Below, piece by piece: positions 31,176-64,000 of a stretch of 64,000 bases of DNA (position 1 is the first letter of the stretch; the number at the start of each line of letters is the position of its first letter). The stretch is taken from contig CAVWLW010000052.1 of assembly GCA_963755715.1 (NCBI GenBank), forward strand, positions 90,545-154,544. The letters are read 5' to 3'. The notes under the pieces were generated by a model, which was not told where the DNA came from, did not search any database, and saw only the letters and a list, made by a program, of their open reading frames with translations. This DNA is from an uncultured delta proteobacterium. GTDB lineage: Bacteria > Desulfobacterota > Binatia > UBA9968. The translations under genes and the position numbers were made by a program.

Positions 31176-31569
31176 TGTAAGCACTTTCTGGATTAAGACT
31201 ATCGAAATATATCCTTGACGCGTAGACAAGGTCAAATTCGAAATACTATTTTGCTACGAGAAAAGACCAGCGCAGCAACGCTGCAACTAAAAAGGGAACG
31301 AGATTGAACCATAACGTTCGGCGGGAAGAACACGCCCGGCGTGAAATAAGCGATCGTCGAGAATCAGACAGAACGTCCAAGGAAGGTCATCCGTCCTTTA
31401 CGTGCTTGAACCAAAAGATTTCGCGCTGCGCTCGAGCGACAGATAGCGAACCGACAGTAACGCGCTGCACGACGGAATGCGATAACGACCGCAGATTTGT
31501 TTGACCTCTGACGATGGGCTGTGATTATGTAGGTCGACGAAGGTTTGGATTTATTCGTGGAGGTTGATT

Positions 31570-32283
31570 ATGGTGAGTTCATGGCAGAGCATCAAAATCG
31601 ATCAAAGCAATATGCCGCTTTATCTGAGCGTGCCGGAAAGCGGCGGATCCGTGCCGGGGGTCGTCGTTGTGCACGGACAGTCGGGGTTGGAAAACTTCAT
31701 CAAAGACACGACACACATGCTAGCGCTCCAGGGCTACGTCGCCGTGGCTCCCAATCTTTATCATCGCGACAGTCCCGACTGTAAGGACGATAATCCGACG
31801 CGCAAGGCACGACTCCGCGATACGACGATCATCAAGGACATCGAAGGGGCAATCGGCTTTCTAAAGAGCCATTCTCGGGTCGATGGCGGAAAGCTCGGGA
31901 TCGTCGGCTTTTGCATGGGTGGTCGTCTTGTCTATCTCATGTCGGCGGCGAGCCGGGATATCAAAGCCGGCGTGATGTTTTATGGCAGCGGCACGATGGT
32001 GCCGTTCGGCGAAGGTCCGACGCCTTTCGAGCGCACGAGCGAGATCAATTGTCCGATCCAAGGTCATTTTGGCGCGGAAGATAAAAATCCGTCGCCTGAA
32101 GACATGCGCAAGCTCGACGCCGAGCTTACGAAGTTCGGCAAAGCTCATGAGTTTCACACTTACGCCGGCGCCGCTCATGCTTTTGTCAACACCGGCTCGA
32201 GTAACTACCGGCCGCGCGCGGCGGCTCTGTCATGGCCAAAAGCGATGGAGTTTTTTAGCAGGCATCTGGTCGGCACGAAATAG
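31570..32283 (+). CDS. Dienelactone hydrolase family protein
   Basis: GFCMGG nucleophile motif, GAED, AHAF. Confidence 0.9.
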   Translation: MVSSWQSIKIDQSNMPLYLSVPESGGSVPGVVVVHGQSGLENFIKDTTHMLALQGYVAVAPNLYHRDSPDCKDDNPTRKARLRDTTIIKDIEGAIGFLKSHSRVDGGKLGIVGFCMGGRLVYLMSAASRDIKAGVMFYGSGTMVPFGEGPTPFERTSEINCPIQGHFGAEDKNPSPEDMRKLDAELTKFGKAHEFHTYAGAAHAFVNTGSSNYRPRAAALSWPKAMEFFSRHLVGTK

Positions 32284-32477
32284 AGATCTCGGAAGGCGGG
32301 GTCGCGGCTGTATTTGCTGATAGAAAAAGCCGCTGTCTGAAGATTGGTTCGTGACGTTAAGCCTACACGGTACGAACCAAACCGGACTCCTGAATTTTTC
32401 CTCGCGGGTAATCCTGTGCCAAAGCGTAGGTTCCAATCTGCAAAACGAACGGGTTTGATAGAACTGCGGCGTGAAAC

Positions 32478-32522
32478 GGCTTGAACGATTTGAACGTTTG
32501 GAACGGCCAAATCGTTCAAGCG
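32478..32522. repeat. 9-bp-period TTGAACG / CGTTCAA hairpin
   Basis: GCTTGAACGATTTGAACGTTTGGAACGGCCAAATCGTTCAAGC. Confidence 0.6.
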
Positions 32523-33106
32523 CTTCTTATTGGCATGAGAGGCCGGAAGCTACTTAACCGGATCCGGCACTCCGGGCGGTTTGGTCTTAGCATCGTAGAA
32601 TTCCTGCGAAAATTCAGGTCAGCCAGTGAATCGGCATGGCCTCCCGACTGTCCTCTTGAATGAATGAACTTCGCTGATTCAGCCTTCGCCGATTCCGTTC
32701 ATGCATCATATCTATGTCGTGATACATCATGTCTATGTCGGCGAGAGTTCCGCGAAGCCCGTGTCACCGCAGATTCAGCACTTCTATGTGGCTGCGCCGG
32801 CGCGCGCAGGTTAATCTAAGGCATTCCCGCCCCCGAATCTTACCGCACGCATGACGAAGGCCGCGCCAGGTGTGCAATCTCACGTGCAAGGATCACCCGA
32901 TAAACCAACATGCCGTGGTCAGCCCAGCGAAAGACTGTAACTCAGTCGCGCACCTAGCGAACCCGATAATTCCAGCCGGAAGATGTGCTTCAGCAAACTA
33001 CCTAAGTTGTACTTGTTATCCCTGCCGACCGTTGCACGGAATGCTCTGCGGATCGCAATAATTTCTCACGTAACTTTGTAGTACCCTGAGGCATGCGAGA
33101 CTTACC

Positions 33107-33146
33107 GTAGAGTTTTCACTACCCTGGGGTAGAGCCAAAACTACCC
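33107..33146. promoter_or_regulatory. Tandem GTAG-N8-CTAC palindromes, putative enhancer (UAS) for a sigma-54 activator
   Basis: GTAGAGTTTTCACTAC (33107-33122) and GTAGAGCCAAAACTAC (33129-33144), 22 bp apart and about 100-130 bp upstream of the -24 box. Confidence 0.55.
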
Positions 33147-33239
33147 TTCAGGTGTATCGCCGTCTCATTTAGGAACTTACCATTCGAAATTCTTCCGTTC
33201 ACTCCACATTTTACTCTCGTCGAATCTCAGCACTGAGGG

Positions 33240-33254
33240 TGGCACGACGGTTGC
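33240..33254 (+). promoter_or_regulatory. Sigma-54 (RpoN) -24/-12 promoter
   Basis: TGGCACGACGGTTGC matches TGGCACG-N4-TTGC exactly. Confidence 0.75.
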
Positions 33255-33436
33255 GCTACGAAAGTCCGCGTCGGAGGTGCCAGCGTTCATCGCTTTGATG
33301 CTGTTCTATGCGTTCGGCTCCCAAAAAGCAGATTGAGAGAAGGTGATGCCTATGTTTTGAAGAGATTCATCCTTTCACCCTATCGGATATGTGCAAAGTC
33401 TCTACGCAGGCTCGTAAGCCTGTTAAAGGAGGACAC

Positions 33437-34338
33437 ATGAGATTGGAGAGCTTGACACCAGATCGCATCAAGACGAGGCACACGTTGGTCGCGCGTCATC
33501 TCGCGTGGCATACACCGATCTCTCGCAGGACGTTTCTCAGGGCTGGAATCGGCACGTCCGCGATGGGCGCGGCACTCGGCGCGGGCTCTTACGGCCCGTA
33601 GCCGCCTCGGCCGCTCCCGGGATCGGCAATGTGCTGCCAATCCCCAGCACGCTGGAGCCTTTCCCTGGTGTAGAGATTCACGTGCAAGCACCGCCCTTCA
33701 CTGGGCCCAATACCGATCCGTCGACCGTCTGGAACTTCCAGGGCGCTTCAGGCATCGCCTTCATGGACACTTCGGCAACGCGTAGGCATAGGAAGACCGG
33801 CGAGGAGGAGGTCCTGCCCTCGACAATGAACCACATGACGTTGATGCAGGGCATCTACGTCGGGCGAGATGGTCACGTGCGGGAGGGTACCTTCTCCTTC
33901 GTTTGAATTGACATCTACGCCCCTGGAGGGGCGCAGCAGCTGCACGATTTCAACCCCGGGATTACCCAGAATGGCCTTTTTTGGACGGTCGTTCTCCCAG
34001 CCGACAATGTCCATGTAGACCTCAGCGCAGGGGCAGCCACGCTCGAAGTGGACTCCCTGGACATGAAGGACTATTACACCCTTGAGAACTCATTTCTGGC
34101 TAACATTGGGCAACCGACCCCTGCAGTGATGTCTTTCACCGTCGTGTGGAACGCAACTGGTAGCGTCAACCACTACGATAACGAGGCCGAGAATTTCCGG
34201 GGCGATTGTAGGGACACCTTAGGGCGGATCGAGTACTCGGGACGCGCTGGCGATTTTGAGTTCCAGTCCGCTCCTCTTGCCAGCTCGACGACCGTCGCCG
34301 CAGAGATTGGTCGTGAGAGCAACGGCTCGTTCTACTAA
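33437..34338 (+). CDS. Putative Tat-exported selenoprotein of unknown family (about 300 aa; in-frame TGA at 33904-33906; 1-nt frameshift near 33585)
   Basis: AAGGAGG RBS, SRRTFL Tat motif, ..GTFSFV-TGA-IDIYAPGG..HDFNPG..GLFWT open to TAA at 34338. Confidence 0.6.
33918..33933 (+). promoter_or_regulatory. SECIS-like hairpin
   Basis: CGCCCC-TGGA-GGGGCG starts 11 nt after the TGA and has a G-containing loop. Confidence 0.5.
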
Positions 34339-34649
34339 GTGCTGGCCAGTCGAAGCTTCGCAGTGGGCGTTTATGCCCAAGGCAGGGCCGGATTGACGGC
34401 GTCTCGGTCCGCGAGGACGGAATCGAACGTGGAAGTAAGATCGCCGGCCGTGCCGTCAATCTGTTCCTCAAGCCGGAGAAAAAATAGCTTTTCCCACAGG
34501 GACGTAGCTCGAATTCTGTGTCGTTGGATCTGGGCTACGTTCCTACGAGAGGGTGCGGCCTGTCAGATTAGACATCCTTGCGCGTTTCATTCGTTTCACC
34601 TTCTTGTATAATGTTATTTGGGGAGAAATACACGGTTTCAAAAGCGGCC

Positions 34650-36151
34650 TGTCAAGCCACCTCAAAATCTAACCGGAGCTGGGATTCGTTGAGTCATGTG
34701 GAAATCTAACCGAAGGTTGTGTACGAATCTGTCCTTCTATTTCAAATTTCTGATGTTTGAGTTTGTTGCTGAAGGTCCAGCCTCTCCATGCTGAGCCCGA
34801 CCGATGAGATACGGAGCGAGTCTTTTGGGGGTTGAGCTCAGGGTTTGGCCGCATTTCTTTTATTGGGGTTTTCTCCCGCATAGCACCATTTCGTTGAGCC
34901 GCTAAAGGGTAAGAGAGTCGAGTTGCTGATCGATACGATGTGACAGTTCAAAAGGGTCGGTATTTTGCCCCAGGGATTTTAGCCCCTGGATCTGTGGGAG
35001 AGTTTTGTTTTGGGATTTGAGTACCCGCTTTAGAGGAGTAGAGGGCGGATCGTAATGGCGCATCACCCGTGAGCCTTGACGGACTTTGCTTCGAAGCTTC
35101 ATGGAAGGCTGGAACAGATTCTGAAAGATCCGAAGCTGCTCATAGAGCTGGTTGATCCTCTTGAGGGCTTCTAAAGTGTCGTAGCGCTCCCAGCCCAAGA
35201 GTTTACGCACGTGGGTCCAGTTTTTCTGCTCCACATGCGTATTGTCATCTTTTTTGTGGGGCGCGAGCGGGTGAACTAGATTTTAGAGGTTTTGGGTCTT
35301 TGCTGACAGAAATTAAACAGGTGGGTATTGATGAACTCGCTGCCGTTGTCGGAGTCAATGCCGCGCATTGCGAAAGGCAATCTCTGCTCAATTTCTCTAA
35401 GCGCCGCCACAATTCCGAGCTGGCCTTTGCCCATGACCGCCTGTCGTTCCACCCAGCCGGTGGTGATATCGACACAGTCCAGAGTGTAGATGAACTCCCC
35501 AGCTGCCGAGGCGCCCGAATGCGCGACCAGGTCGATTTCTAGATAGCCGGGCAAAGCCACCTCCCAATGATCAGTCTTGATAGTAATCATGTGTTTGAGA
35601 AGTGAGCCTGGGCGAGTGGTGCCATAGAGGCGTCGTTTGACGGTGCGCTTGTGGGGGAAAAGCCGCCGATCCATCACGAGCACTGATCGCCAAGAGCTCT
35701 TTTTCCAATTCTTCGTTCACCTTAAAGTGCTTCTTGATCCAGGGGAGCCACTGCGGCAGTGTCGCCTTTAGACGCTGAGAGCACAGATAGCCGGAGGCTT
35801 CCCAGACCTTGGCCAGCACCTTAATGCTTGCCTTACTGTAGGTCACCGAGCGCGGCGTCACACCTCGGCGCACAGCGCCTGGGCAAAGGACGGCTTAAAA
35901 GCCAGATGGCGTACTTGCGGTTATAACCGCACACCTTGCAGAACTCTTCCAACATCGCGCTCTTCTCTGTGCGCCGCCCCTGTCGGTAGCGCTTATGAAT
36001 CGATCGCAAATACTCCCGCTTGGATTGTCGCGCCATACTGAATCCCTCCATCACTCCCCTTCTTCTCCTCCACAGCATGAGGCCAAGGAGGGTTAGATTT
36101 CCAAACGGCGCAACGAACCTTTACTCGGTTAGATTATACAGGCGCAATACG
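34650..36151 (-). mobile_element. Insertion sequence (rve/DDE integrase type, ISNCY/IS481-like) with doubled terminal motifs
   Basis: AATCTAACC at 34666 and 34703; GGTTAGATT at 36091 and 36127; transposase between them. Confidence 0.75.
34669..36036 (-). pseudogene. DDE transposase/integrase in six fragments (decayed, or split by sequencing error)
   Basis: SKREYLRSIHKRY..GYNRKYAI, YLCSQRL, EIDLVAH, GIDSDNGSEFIN, EQKNWTHVR, NLFQPSMKL. Confidence 0.8.
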
Positions 36152-59867: not shown

Positions 59868-60570
59868 TCACTCGGAGCAGGACTGTTGCCGCGAATATGC
59901 TCGCCGAGCCTACCGATTCAATGCATTTGCCCTTGCCGTAGTAGGTTCTCTTCTTACAGCTCAATTGCGGCGCACCCTTTAACAGTTTGCATGCATCATC
60001 TCGCCTGATTCTCGCTAAGACGACCCTATTATCAATTCGTCGAATTCTGCTTTTGCGTTATTTCACCGCAGCAGTCTCCTGTCCGTTGATCTCTCAGAAA
60101 AAAGCTCGAATAATTTTCCAGCCGTGTTAGCTCAGCATAGCGAACGAGTCACTCAATGACGACGCTCTCAACAGTGACCTGCGGAGCCGCAACTCTTTCG
60201 TCGTAAAAGACGTGATCTAGAGCATCGAGGCTTATCGTGACTTGCTCGGCTTTAGGAATCGGGGGGTTCAGTCATGCCAGCCGATGTTTGATGGGAGCGA
60301 ACGGGACGGAGTCGCCATTCATCTGTTTAGCTCATGGCTGTCTTGTCCAGCGTCGGAATTTGGCGATGGTCGGAAATGACGATCACACGGTGTCCTTGAG
60401 CGCGTCTTCTTTTTTTCGCTAGGCTGCTAATACGTTTTTCCGTCGCGCCGAGCTCACAATTTGATCTCAATTCATCTCATCGAAATACATCGATCGATTG
60501 TGATATATCAAAAACGTTTTGCCATCACTGGGTCAGCTCGCGGACCCGTCATTTTGAGAGAGAGGGCATC

Positions 60571-60857
60571 ATGATTCGCCGATTGCTAGTTTCCTCAGCG
60601 CTCTTCGCAGCTATCTTGTGTCCGCTGAATCTTATGGCCCAGGAAAAGAAATTGGAAAAGTTCCGCACCGGCGGCGGCTCGGCGTCAGCGGCGCAGATGT
60701 CGGTTTGGCTTGCCAAGGAAGGGAATTATTACGAGAAGAACGGCCTCAGCGTCGAGGTCATCAGTATTCCGGGAAGCTCGCTGGCGATCCAGGCGATGCT
60801 GTCGGGAGAGCTGCCGATCATTCAAGCCGGCGGCGCGGGACCGATTCAGGCCGCGCC
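60571..60857 (+). pseudogene. 5' part of an NMT1/TauA-like binding protein gene, truncated
   Basis: Signal peptide, YEKNGLSVE, QAMLSGE; family resemblance stops after PIQAA. Confidence 0.75.
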
Positions 60858-61534
60858 CCTGTGTCTAAGTGATTTGTTGAGTTTGTCTCTTCTACTCGAT
60901 CACCCAATTCAAAGGCAACTGGTTGTATCAGTCCCGTTTTATCCTCGTGTCGCTGGCTGTCAACCGACCCAGTTTATGCAGAAACGCGAGCGTATGAAAA
61001 TCAGCTATTTTCCTGAGGAGGAGAGCAACCAAGCGTGACGATTCGACTACGGGAGCTGTATCAGATTTGATTTGTGGGGTGAGCGACAGTTCATCACATT
61101 GCAAGTTCCCCCCGGACACTTGACGGCTCCCTACAAGTTTTTCTTGGCTCACAAATATCTGCTGGATTCACTTTATACGCCTTTGCCATCGCGATTCCTT
61201 CCCAGTTCTCATAGGGATTATCTATTCGGTCAATTTGTTTAATTGATTGGCCCAGTTAGTCTTCAACAAATTTAAAAATACCGTGACAATATTTCATGGT
61301 GGTGTGATAGGTAGCGAGATTAAAATGCTCCTCAAGATTTGAGCAATTGAGATTGTGTTCAACTCTAATTGAAAGAGACGACGTCTTGGAGCTTCAAAAG
61401 GCTTGGAAAAAAATCGCGGCAACCTGCGTTGTAATCATCCAGTGTATGACAGCGAGCTAAAGAAAACTTGAAGACAAGATCGACAAGTACAAATGGAAAA
61501 AATCTAAGAAGAGGAAAGCTGGCTAGAGCGTAAG

Positions 61535-61759
61535 ATGGCGAATCTGGAATATAGAGGGCACCTCATTTCCGTTTCTGTTATCTACGATACCCAAAATCAT
61601 TATCAACTCACTCCCATTATAGACATTAGGCGCTCTGAGTTCATTGAGGTCCTGAACACAATACTTACACAGCAGGCTTTCAATACCGTAGAAAACGCAA
61701 CCGGGTTTGGCTTTGGACTAGGGCGAGAATGGGTTGATGAGCGTCTGTCACCGGAGTGA
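61535..61759 (+). CDS. Small hypothetical protein
   Basis: YRGHLISV..A.GFG..LGREWVD; GTGA overlap with the next ORF. Confidence 0.5.
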   Translation: MANLEYRGHLISVSVIYDTQNHYQLTPIIDIRRSEFIEVLNTILTQQAFNTVENATGFGFGLGREWVDERLSPE

Positions 61760-61959
61760 GCGGAATGATCCTATTTTACCGAAGGCATAAAGACACGTTA
61801 GATCCAGAGTGGCATTTCCATACCGACTGCCCGCATTGGCCGGATACCAATTTCGTGCAACTGCATTTTATAAATCCCGAAATGAACGAGCGGTTTTGCG
61901 AAGATTGCGCGAACCTAGAAGCCGCGATGTTTCCATCAAAAAAACCCGCGGACGCTTAG
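61756..61959 (+). CDS. Small putative metal-binding protein
   Basis: WHFHTDCPHWP..FCEDC. Confidence 0.5.
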   Translation: MSGMILFYRRHKDTLDPEWHFHTDCPHWPDTNFVQLHFINPEMNERFCEDCANLEAAMFPSKKPADA

Positions 61960-62007
61960 CGGCAAGCATCCGCCGACGAAAATATAAGCGTAGAGCTGGG
62001 AGCTCGG

Positions 62008-62177
62008 TTACCGGTGGACTCGACGTCTATGGCTGCCACAACAACCGCAGGGCTGGAGGTTATCACTGCCATCGCGGCCCACTAGCAGGGCAATCGTTCA
62101 GCTCAAAGGAAGAGATGCTCAAGAAACTGTCAGCAGAGAATACTGATAGAAAAGTCCAGACAGATGTTAAGAAGTAA
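62008..62177 (+). pseudogene. YHYH-domain protein fragment
   Basis: GGLDVYGCHNNRRAGGYHCHRG motif; no clear start or signal peptide. Confidence 0.5.
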
Positions 62178-62343
62178 GGCGAAATCTCCGGCGGAGAGAA
62201 AAGAACCGCCAACTCCGAAGAAACCCCCTATAAAAGAGCCCAAGAAAGTCCAAAAGCCTATCGGCGATCCGCCACCGAAGAGAGCACCAAAACGAGTGAT
62301 GCTTCAAGGCTACTTTCAGGATTCGATATGGCAAGGTATCTAG
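62164..62343 (+). CDS. 59-aa Pro/Lys-rich small ORF (not in the supplied ORF track)
   Basis: MLRSKAKSPAERKEPPTPKKPPIKEPKKVQKPIGDPPPKRAPKRV..; ATG at 62164 to TAG at 62343. Confidence 0.35.
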   Translation: MLRSKAKSPAERKEPPTPKKPPIKEPKKVQKPIGDPPPKRAPKRVMLQGYFQDSIWQGI

Positions 62344-62522
62344 CCCGAAGCTGTCCTCGATGTAATGGCTATCTTGGAGTCGTGCTGAGAGAGCCGGGGC
62401 GCAACGTACCGCTGCAAGCGGTGAATGGTCGATGCACTCGTTGCTCTTATCGCATGGCTTGGATTGTTATCAGAGGCAAAGGATCATCGAGCGACAACAT
62501 CCGCAAGGCAAGTCATACCTAG
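62328..62522 (+). CDS. Small zinc-ribbon protein
   Basis: CPRC and CTRC pairs. Confidence 0.55.
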   Translation: MARYLARSCPRCNGYLGVVLREPGRNVPLQAVNGRCTRCSYRMAWIVIRGKGSSSDNIRKASHT

Positions 62523-62713
62523 AGAGCACCCCCATCCGACAGCCCGCGCAACAACCTTTTTCCTGCCACCCAACCGGGAGGCGGGTTGAAATGTCAATTG
62601 AATGTCACCAAGTGTCAAGACAAGCAGCGTTTGAGGGATTATCTCTTCCGCATCAATTTTATTCTCCCTTCCTCGGCGTAGCCGGGCAGTGAAGGGGTGT
62701 AGGGAGGAGCACA

Positions 62714-62986
62714 ATGAAAAGGCTCGCAAAAGCAAGAAACATCAAGTCAGGTGAGACAGTCCTTGACCGTGGCACGCGCTTCATTATCAAAGAGGTCTGC
62801 GTTAGCGCGGAACCCGGGCGGCTCGCGTTCATCGACATGCAGGATGTCTGGCACGGGAACTATCATCCAGATGAATATTTAGCAGTAGGGGAAGAACTCG
62901 CCCGCAAACGTGCCGTAACTTACGATTGGCAAATAGTACAAGAGGCTTACCTGTTGGCTAACATGCCTTCAGAGATGATTCATTAA
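62714..62986 (+). CDS. Hypothetical protein
   Basis: GGAGGAG RBS followed by a 90-codon ORF. Confidence 0.5.
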   Translation: MKRLAKARNIKSGETVLDRGTRFIIKEVCVSAEPGRLAFIDMQDVWHGNYHPDEYLAVGEELARKRAVTYDWQIVQEAYLLANMPSEMIH

Positions 62987-63399
62987 CCGCGCCCCCTCTC
63001 AATGATTTATTTTCTGTCCATTCACGGCGCGATCCTTGGCTCAATTTCGAGCGGCGCTCGACGAGAGCAGTGTGGTGTTGGTCATGTGTTCTAGAACTAG
63101 CAGAAACAAAAACGAATGGAAATTGAAGAAAAACCAATCACATTTCACAAACATATTTGTTTTCTATGCCGGCGATCCTATGAAGAGGTTGAAACCGGCG
63201 AGTGCCAGTACGGTCACGACCATCCATGGGGGAAATGTCCTCCGTGCGAAGACAAATTTGCCGTTGGTAAACCAATCACTTTCCTATGACGGTCCGCATG
63301 TTGGTTTTAATCTTAACTTAATGATCGTCAATTTGTTCGAGCAAAGGCAAGGATCTGGCTTTGCAGCTACTAGCTATTGCGTTCTGCTGGCGCCCATTG

Positions 63400-64000
63400 T
63401 CACTTGATCACCTTGTCCGTCCGCGCCAGCGCGTTGGGCGGAATCGTCACGCCCTCCAGCCGTGCCGCCACAGTCTCAAGGTAGGCGTACTTCGCTGTTA
63501 GCTCTTCGACCTTCGATGCCAGCACCGCAATCTGCGCCTCCTTCTGTTTTAGCTCCGCCGTGCGCTTCTCCAGCGCCTGCACCGCGACCATAAGAATCCC
63601 CGCCAAGTCGCCAGAGTTGATCGTCGTCTCCGTGCCGATCTGTCCGACGCCGTCTTGGCCGAAGGCCGCAAAGAAGTCTTGCGCCATGGGACCATAGTGG
63701 CGAAACTCTTTAGGATCATGGCCAATGAAGTTCCAACTCGATAGCTCAAAGCCGCGAATCTTCCCCAGCACTGCTTCTCCATCCACCGGCTGGAAGTTTT
63801 CCTTCTTGGTCTTGTCCGAACTGGCAGTAAACGCCACCTGCCCTTCGATCACCGTGACAGCAGTGTTTCCCAGGCGGATCTTATTGCTGGCATTGACGAT
63901 GGCTCCATTGCCAATAGCCGTAGCGTTGTTCAGATTCCCAGCAGAAATCGGCATCGGCTCCGAATCCGATGGCGGTGTTGTCGTTGCCCGTGGTGTTGCT
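63400..64000 (-). CDS. Tail-fibre/adhesin-like protein with an intramolecular chaperone (peptidase S74/ICA) domain; 5' part lies outside the window
   Basis: NTAIG/ATAIG repeats, SSDKTKKENF, HYGPMAQDF, C-terminal coiled coil. Confidence 0.75.
   Translation of the reverse strand, partial: ATPRATTTPPSDSEPMPISAGNLNNATAIGNGAIVNASNKIRLGNTAVTVIEGQVAFTASSDKTKKENFQPVDGEAVLGKIRGFELSSWNFIGHDPKEFRHYGPMAQDFFAAFGQDGVGQIGTETTINSGDLAGILMVAVQALEKRTAELKQKEAQIAVLASKVEELTAKYAYLETVAARLEGVTIPPNALARTDKVIK

Follow-up and report, generated by a model that had tools for sequence, protein, structure and literature searches.

A conserved in-frame TGA followed by a covarying hairpin very probably encodes selenocysteine in a family of predicted exported β-barrel proteins

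Relation to described selenoproteins

Selenoproteins exported through the Tat pathway are already known as such, the periplasmic formate dehydrogenase being an established case. Formate dehydrogenases of the FdnG/FdhA type carry a Tat signal, one in-frame Sec-UGA and, shortly after it, a bSECIS hairpin, and the same arrangement is found at the locus described here, which lies in a window of 64,000 nucleotides (the whole stretch of DNA that was analysed). The two proteins differ in kind, with FdhA being a large Mo/W-bis-PGD enzyme having a UHxP motif (TIGR01553), whereas the window family is predicted to be a 240-aa all-β barrel and has no match to TIGR01553 or another model. FdhA is entered in Table 1 of a May 2026 review, which lists 119 prokaryotic selenoprotein families with model identifiers (PMC13188914). 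The window family matches none of the Pfam, NCBIfam or TIGRFAM models of that table, the comparison covering the families defined by these three collections, and no entry of the table describes a Tat-exported barrel (PMC13188914).

A second likeness is to the deep-Sep hypothetical proteins DG, DW and DF and to GOS_B and GOS_C, which are also recognised only by a conserved UGA, a bSECIS-like hairpin and homologs (PMC12013277, PMC13188914). Unlike the window family, these predicted families have NCBIfam models (NF049953, NF041197, NF049942, NF041374 and NF045500). The new deep-Sep families come from Desulfobacterota and are given with NCBIfam models, and all nine deep-Sep families (DG, DW and DF included) are stated to have Cys homologs (PMC12013277), whereas a Cys form is rare in the window family (1/16). 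This rarity probably explains why searches based on Cys/TGA pairs missed the family.

Searches with the window protein (P0001) give no Pfam family above its cut-off, with 17 members of the family matching only TAT_signal, and no NCBIfam match, with 0 of 77 members matching at E ≤ 0.1. A sequence search of the PDB gives no match, and Foldseek against the PDB returns nothing above a TM score of 0.30. No description of the family was found in the full text of the articles searched. The preliminary description of this DNA, made from the sequence and a list of open reading frames, had stated that the protein resembles no recognised selenoprotein family, and the absence of Pfam, NCBIfam, PDB and catalogue model matches agrees with this. 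A new selenoprotein family using the standard bacterial Sec mechanism is probable.

One candidate relative was tried and not confirmed. A language-model feature search with the Cys homolog P0125 as query places DUF1838 (PF08894) clusters at 0.94 in 26 of 30 matches. HMMER finds no match to PF08894 for 17 members at E ≤ 10, and a PF08894 search finds nothing in five genomes that hold the family, with stops read through, although it also finds nothing in any of the 14 control genomes. The match did not recur with the C-terminal half of the window protein as query. Kinship with DUF1838 is a lead only.

Gene layout and state of the window copy

The arrangement of the locus is given in the Table. 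The three open reading frame pieces are read with high confidence as a single gene for an exported β-barrel protein whose conserved in-frame TGA encodes selenocysteine under the direction of a hairpin, in a family lying outside current catalogues. Such a gene would produce a precursor of about 300 aa composed of a Tat signal peptide followed by a mature single closed β-barrel of about 240 aa. Its UGA would be decoded as selenocysteine by SelB and tRNA-Sec, which the hairpin beginning 11 nt downstream would recruit in the manner of other bacterial selenoprotein mRNAs.

Table. Positions of the features of the candidate selenoprotein gene in the window
Feature	Position	Strand	Basis or remark
Shine-Dalgarno-like AAGGAGG	33426..33432	+	read from sequence; 4 nt 5' of the ATG
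ATG and Tat signal peptide, ATG frame	33437..33585	+	long n-region, SRRTFL, hydrophobic stretch
S-R-R-T-F-L codons	33521-33538	+	direct reading
TAG closing frame 1 (ATG frame)	33599-33601	+	direct reading
GGG run, one base short relative to all close relatives	33583..33585	+	comparison with six relatives
Signal-peptide end (LLRPVAASA/A, AxA site) and N-terminal half of mature protein	33586..33903	+	frame of 33505
In-frame TGA, proposed selenocysteine codon	33904..33906	+	residue 157 of repaired 300-aa precursor
bSECIS-like hairpin	33918..33933	+	CGCCCC 33918-33923, TGGA 33924-33927, GGGGCG 33928-33933
C-terminal half, 143 codons and TAA	33907..34338	+	TAA at 34336-34338
Three ORF pieces	33389/33437..33601; 33505..33906; GTG 34048..34338	+	ORF list

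The ribosome-binding site, ATG, twin-arginine motif, in-frame TGA and frame open to the terminal TAA that the preliminary description had named are each seen in the sequence, and its three fragments agree with the ORF list, the earliest start 3' of the TGA being a GTG 47 codons on that lacks a Shine-Dalgarno sequence. With one base restored, the gene has the claimed length of about 300 aa (300 aa) with the TGA as codon 157, and the hairpin lies at the claimed distance of exactly 11 nt past the TGA. The AAAGGAG core of the ribosome-binding site is kept in six close relatives (L105-L109 and L134). The N-terminal piece scores 18.7 bits with the Tat signal model TIGR01409 (cut-off 16.7) and 17.1 with Pfam TAT_signal, under the cut-off of 22.7 for that model, and an S/T-R-R-x-F/L motif is present upstream in most of the 80 homolog loci in genomes. 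All of the Tat features are present in the window, but the h-region and the AxA site are out of frame with the twin-arginine motif.

The last normal gene before the gene-poor stretch is an intact gene of the dienelactone hydrolase family at 31564-32283 on the plus strand (PF01738, E = 8.8e-48). The region 32300-33420 directly 5' of the gene has no ORF of at least 200 aa, and an Rfam scan of 32200-35000 shows nothing relevant. Another region of the window, 60001-64000, likewise has no ORF of at least 200 aa and has a G+C content of 0.48-0.53 compared with about 0.55 elsewhere.

The break in the reading frame of the window copy occurs at the GGG run. All six of the close relatives, which come from soil metagenomes and have 86-94% protein identity to the window, have one more base at this run. 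The site reads GCGGGGCTC in L106-L109 and L134, GCAGGGCTC in L105 and GCGGGCTC in the window, and in each of the six relatives a single open frame extends from the ATG through GAGLLRPVAASAAPGIG to the TGA. A contig from run X3 has an additional base behind 33582. The contigs of the relatives carry the extra base, and none of the differences listed for them falls at 33904-33906. Among public sequencing runs none contains half or more of the sampled words of the stretch, the best reaching 0.40, and the RNA contigs spanning the TGA in one soil metatranscriptome indicate transcription at most. A database protein of 156 aa (P0008) is 98% identical to the window and terminates exactly before the TGA. 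The preliminary description had placed a missing G near 33585 and likened it to many other indels in this DNA. The missing base is found, but it is not clearly an ordinary assembly indel, and the copy may be a pseudogene.

Assembly error and recent inactivating mutation are about evenly matched as explanations for the window copy. There is accordingly an even chance that the family is one of true selenoproteins of which this copy is a pseudogene, with the deletion being real and the protein neither made nor exported in this organism. The deletion is missing from the six close relatives, and the many intact ORFs of 300-615 aa elsewhere in the window indicate that indel errors are infrequent there. 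The window branch also has a surplus of private non-synonymous changes (7 non-synonymous to 3 synonymous compared with 21:46 in four relatives, Fisher p = 0.031, from small counts). These private changes include F83L, at a position occupied by F in 74 of 76 others, and the window also has a private F205C, where at least 72 of 76 others have a hydrophobic residue. The gene is placed in a gene-poor stretch of 4 kb, with ORFs of at least 200 aa covering only 7% of the window between 32 and 36 kb, whereas intact ORFs of 300-615 aa occupy most of the window. Just downstream of the gene, at 34902-36078 on the minus strand, four consecutive short ORFs (81, 100, 135 and 110 aa) look like a transposase broken by several frameshifts, the third (135 aa) having a weak match to the rve integrase core (E = 5.7e-4, below the cut-off). 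No homolog is present in the 40 related genomes searched (24 of the same genus and 16 of the same order), which fits a recently acquired, dispensable gene.

Set against a pseudogene, the deletion is located in a G homopolymer, and homopolymer assembly errors do occur in this assembly, since selD in it is likewise broken by a single-base homopolymer indel (AAA in place of the AA that preserves the frame). The remainder of the gene is open for 250 codons, the pN/pS values against four close relatives are still below 0.45 (0.16-0.31 for the N-terminal half and 0.35-0.44 for the C-terminal half), and few counts underlie the p value for the private changes.

The TGA column, the hairpin and the selenocysteine machinery

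The reading of the TGA as a selenocysteine codon is strongly supported at the level of the family. In genomes, TGA is present at the column in 80 of 80 loci, and the tblastn homology continues through it in frame. These loci are those kept of 114 relatives on one-genome-per-species contigs, all of them MAGs, and without L047 and L074, which are from genomes flagged as unpublished, the count is 78/78. Among JGI metagenome loci, for which one of the two search patterns demanded W or C at the column, 35 of 36 have TGA and the remaining one has TAA. The combined set contains TGA at 115 of 116 loci, one TAA and no TGG or TGY, with the frame and the adjacency of the two halves kept in 116/116, in answer to the check proposed in the preliminary description. 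The sole locus with TAA (L120:654-656) may be a dead copy or a sequencing error. The titles of the genome loci name Acidimicrobiia, Gaiellaceae, Streptosporangiaceae, Ktedonobacteria, Thermomicrobiales, Anaerolineales, Dormibacterota, Terriglobia, Blastocatellia and Eisenbacteria. Most members come from soil MAGs bearing the labels Actinomycetota, Chloroflexota, Acidobacteriota, Dormibacterota and Eisenbacteria, and the labels of the homologous loci cover at least five phyla.

The hairpin of the window has a 6-bp stem, a 4-nt UGGA loop, a distance of 17 nt from the UGA to the loop and a free energy of -11.1 kcal/mol. It agrees in all respects with the bSECIS model, which calls for an apical loop of 3-9 nt with G in its first two positions, an upper stem of 4-16 bp, a UGA-to-loop distance of 16-37 nt and an MFE ≤ -7.5 kcal/mol (PMC13188914). 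In nearly every homolog the hairpin begins 13-14 nt past the UGA and has a stem of 6-8 bp with a GUU, GUC, GGU or AGUU loop, and the stem sequences differ widely among homologs. A hairpin of at least 6 bp and ≤ -7 kcal/mol is found at +10..+46 in 68 of 116 sequences, whereas at 186 other in-frame offsets within these genes the share averages 7.6% and does not exceed 24.6%. All four bSECIS criteria hold at 76 of 117 sites, the share at 162 control offsets averaging 6.3% and peaking at 18.4%. The other 41 of 117 hairpins fail the strict model as scored with contiguous stems only.

With a covariance model made from 12 ungapped sequences, 55 on-target sites were aligned, every one of them at the TGA (alignment A8). 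In this alignment, which is fitted to the structure and whose pairing and covariation figures are to be read with that in view, 91.8% of cells are paired compared with 61.4% in shuffles (0/500 reach the observed value) and 31-47% when the partner is slid, and changes on both sides occur in 7 of 8 stem pairs. The position of the hairpin is fixed and 7/8 pairs have compensatory changes, which bears out the conservation and covariation that the preliminary description had asked for. When the 55 nt that follow the TGA are aligned with plain MAFFT, RNAalifold gives no consensus structure because the loops are misaligned, and ranking 36-nt windows by MFE within each gene is uninformative, with the site being the most stable in only 4 of 81 genes. 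The amino acids that the stem encodes vary (YAPGGA, YDPSSGA, FTGAVGS and FTSPVED); it is the RNA pairing and not the protein sequence that is conserved there. The codon right after the TGA is ATT, CTG, CTC or CTT in most loci and ATG in one subgroup (L039, L041, L043, L046, L048, L055, L060 and L095). In this AUG-after-UGA subgroup a second, lower stem (GGACCUG/CAGGUUC) lengthens the hairpin as far as the UGA, and the resulting SECIS-like structure reaches up to -26 kcal/mol.

The genome from which the window is taken contains selA (617 bits) and selB (416 bits) side by side with selD adjoining, and a tRNA-Sec (76.7 bits), all above curated cut-offs, so that the four components sought, selA, selB, selC and selD, are all found. 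The selD gene (G000:C3:71086-72013, minus strand; L011/L012) is a selenoprotein gene in its own right, its N-terminal region containing an in-frame TGA. Among the 49 genomes that hold the family, selA is above the cut-off in 45 and some Sec component is present in 48. The other four are G047, having selA in pieces and tRNA-Sec, G064, having selB and tRNA-Sec, G077, having selB, and G048, having none. The selA of G047 (G047:C2:326992-328258) is in several frame-shifted pieces placed beside selB pieces and tRNA-Sec, and long-read MAGs such as G047 seem to carry many indels. For comparison, Sec use is put at 21.5% of sequenced bacteria (PMC5029168), a background for sequenced bacteria at large. 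In the phylum of the window selA is present in 184 of 201 genomes, a proportion too high to be informative and from a phylum that is not that of the holders.

The residue at the column in database proteins requires separate consideration. Among 16 full-length representatives it is W in nine, Ser in three, Cys in one, and F, K, L and G once each. The preliminary description had named Trp in homologs as evidence against selenocysteine; W does occur in these nine of 16 proteins, but at the DNA level TGG is found in 0 of 116 loci. The W-containing protein P0006 is 95.2% identical over 250 residues to L133, the DNA of which has TGA, and in P0124 and P0129 a W is present just beyond the usual C terminus of the family. 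The W of the database homologs is probably TGA translated with code 4, a gene-calling artefact of short contigs, as indicated indirectly by the identity of P0006 and L133, the C-terminal W of P0124 and P0129 and the absence of TGG from the 116 loci. Of the family genes whose end is visible, 78 in all, 27 terminate at TGA, so TGA serves as a stop in these organisms and there is no change of code. The single Cys form among the 16 (P0125) provides a Sec/Cys pair, and this signature is thin in the family.

A reading without selenium, in which a near-cognate or suppressor tRNA would insert Trp or some other standard residue at the UGA and the hairpin would stimulate read-through, is very improbable. 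UGA is the leakiest stop codon, which together with the W of the database proteins counts towards such read-through. If Trp were acceptable, TGG would be expected among the loci, where none occurs, and both the near identity of a W protein to a TGA locus and the W at the position of a code-4 terminal TGA oppose it, as do the fit of the hairpin to the SelB-type model in loop G, spacing and size and the almost constant presence of Sec genes in the holder genomes.

Equally remote is a true stop, with the 156-residue Tat-signal protein as sole product or with a separately made downstream half assembling with it, for which the splitting by gene callers (the matches listed being mostly N-terminal halves of 152-201 aa or C-terminal halves) and the ATG directly after the TGA in one subgroup can be cited, but against which stand the distant first start of the window without a Shine-Dalgarno sequence, a next codon in most loci other than ATG, the invariant D106, Q115, D118-G122 and W130 within the 47 start-less codons, the need of the AF2 barrel for strands of both halves and the frame and adjacency kept at every locus.

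Selenocysteine at a single continuous gene remains the preferred reading, and the form in which the family appears in databases is as expected by the preliminary description, which had stated that standard annotation would split it; the database relatives are mostly N-halves or C-halves. A word-indexed protein search gives 170 relatives, and most of the 120 listed are 152-201 aa long, cover the first 31-49% of the query and end at the TGA column. An exhaustive profile search gives 1,970 representatives at 50% identity, halves included (E ≤ 0.001), and most of the 150 matches listed are C-halves. In public collections a member takes one of three forms, an N-half of about 155 aa, a C-half of about 145 aa whose start lies at the Sec column or just past it, or a full-length protein with W. 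Well over a thousand cluster representatives are affected by this systematic annotation artefact. The names given to relatives at their sources are "hypothetical protein", "TAT pathway signal sequence" and "secreted PhoX family phosphatase".

Predicted fold and biological meaning

The AF2 model of the read-through product, calculated with an alignment of 77 read-through sequences, has a pLDDT of 94.6 and a pTM of 0.91 and is all-β with long strands. It forms one domain, a single closed β-barrel to which strands from both halves contribute, and Sec104 (mature numbering) is located within strand 95-108, in agreement with the β-strand context proposed in the preliminary description, which had also called for such a structure prediction. 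The set for comparison comprises the small closed β-barrels OmpW, PagL and NspA, the TbpB/fHbp-type lipoprotein barrels, and nitrobindin, YceI and acetoacetate decarboxylase. Invariant residues occur on either side of Sec (G50, G86, F100, U104, D106, Q115, D118-F-N-P-G122, W130, D159, W185 and N243-G244). H117 is nearly invariant in the family, and at residue 80 at least 90% of members have D and the clade of the window has H. The motif surrounding Sec is F-x-F-x-U-[ILM]-D, and no redox motif is present. From the strand pattern of the model, U104 and D106 appear to face the same side as H117 and Q115 from the next strand and residue 80 from the previous strand, and these positions are placed a few residues before the variable loop encoded by the hairpin.

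The neighbours of the gene are not conserved, and no neighbour family recurs at more than 9 of the 80 loci. The shared families (SDR, ECF sigma factor, Ser/Thr kinase and phosphonate-binding protein) are too generic to suggest a function. As a working guess from the model, the protein may be an extracytoplasmic enzyme whose reactive nucleophile or redox centre would be Sec104, located close to one end of the barrel and next to D106 and H117. An exported enzyme with Sec as its reactive centre is favoured because the change from U to C or S in rare homologs fits a nucleophile, and a Sec/His/Asp metal-binding site would be the main alternative function. A more specific proposal, of low probability, would make this protein the first member to be recognised in a family of exported β-barrel enzymes that depend almost obligately on Sec, in which Sec would be the nucleophile of a Sec-His-Asp-type site (U104, H117 and D106/D80) with rare replacement by Ser or Cys and a chemistry that need not be thiol-redox.

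Selenoprotein genes are routinely split or truncated by annotation, and new selenoprotein families usually come from Cys/UGA pairs, which are largely lacking here. As a practical warning, public protein sets show the family as halves of about 155 aa and about 145 aa or with a spurious Trp. If confirmed, the finding would add a widespread family, with 1,970 representatives at 50% identity, at least five phyla among its labels and soil MAGs as its main source, and would provide a concrete target for 75Se labelling and soil metaproteomics. A fold without a solved relative by sequence, no redox motif and an extracytoplasmic location would then point to a wider range of bacterial selenium uses. The selenoproteomes of Actinomycetota, Chloroflexota and Acidobacteriota are considered small, and if the reading of the protein as an enzyme with a Sec nucleophile is true, selenium would be required for an extracytoplasmic activity in soil members of these three phyla.
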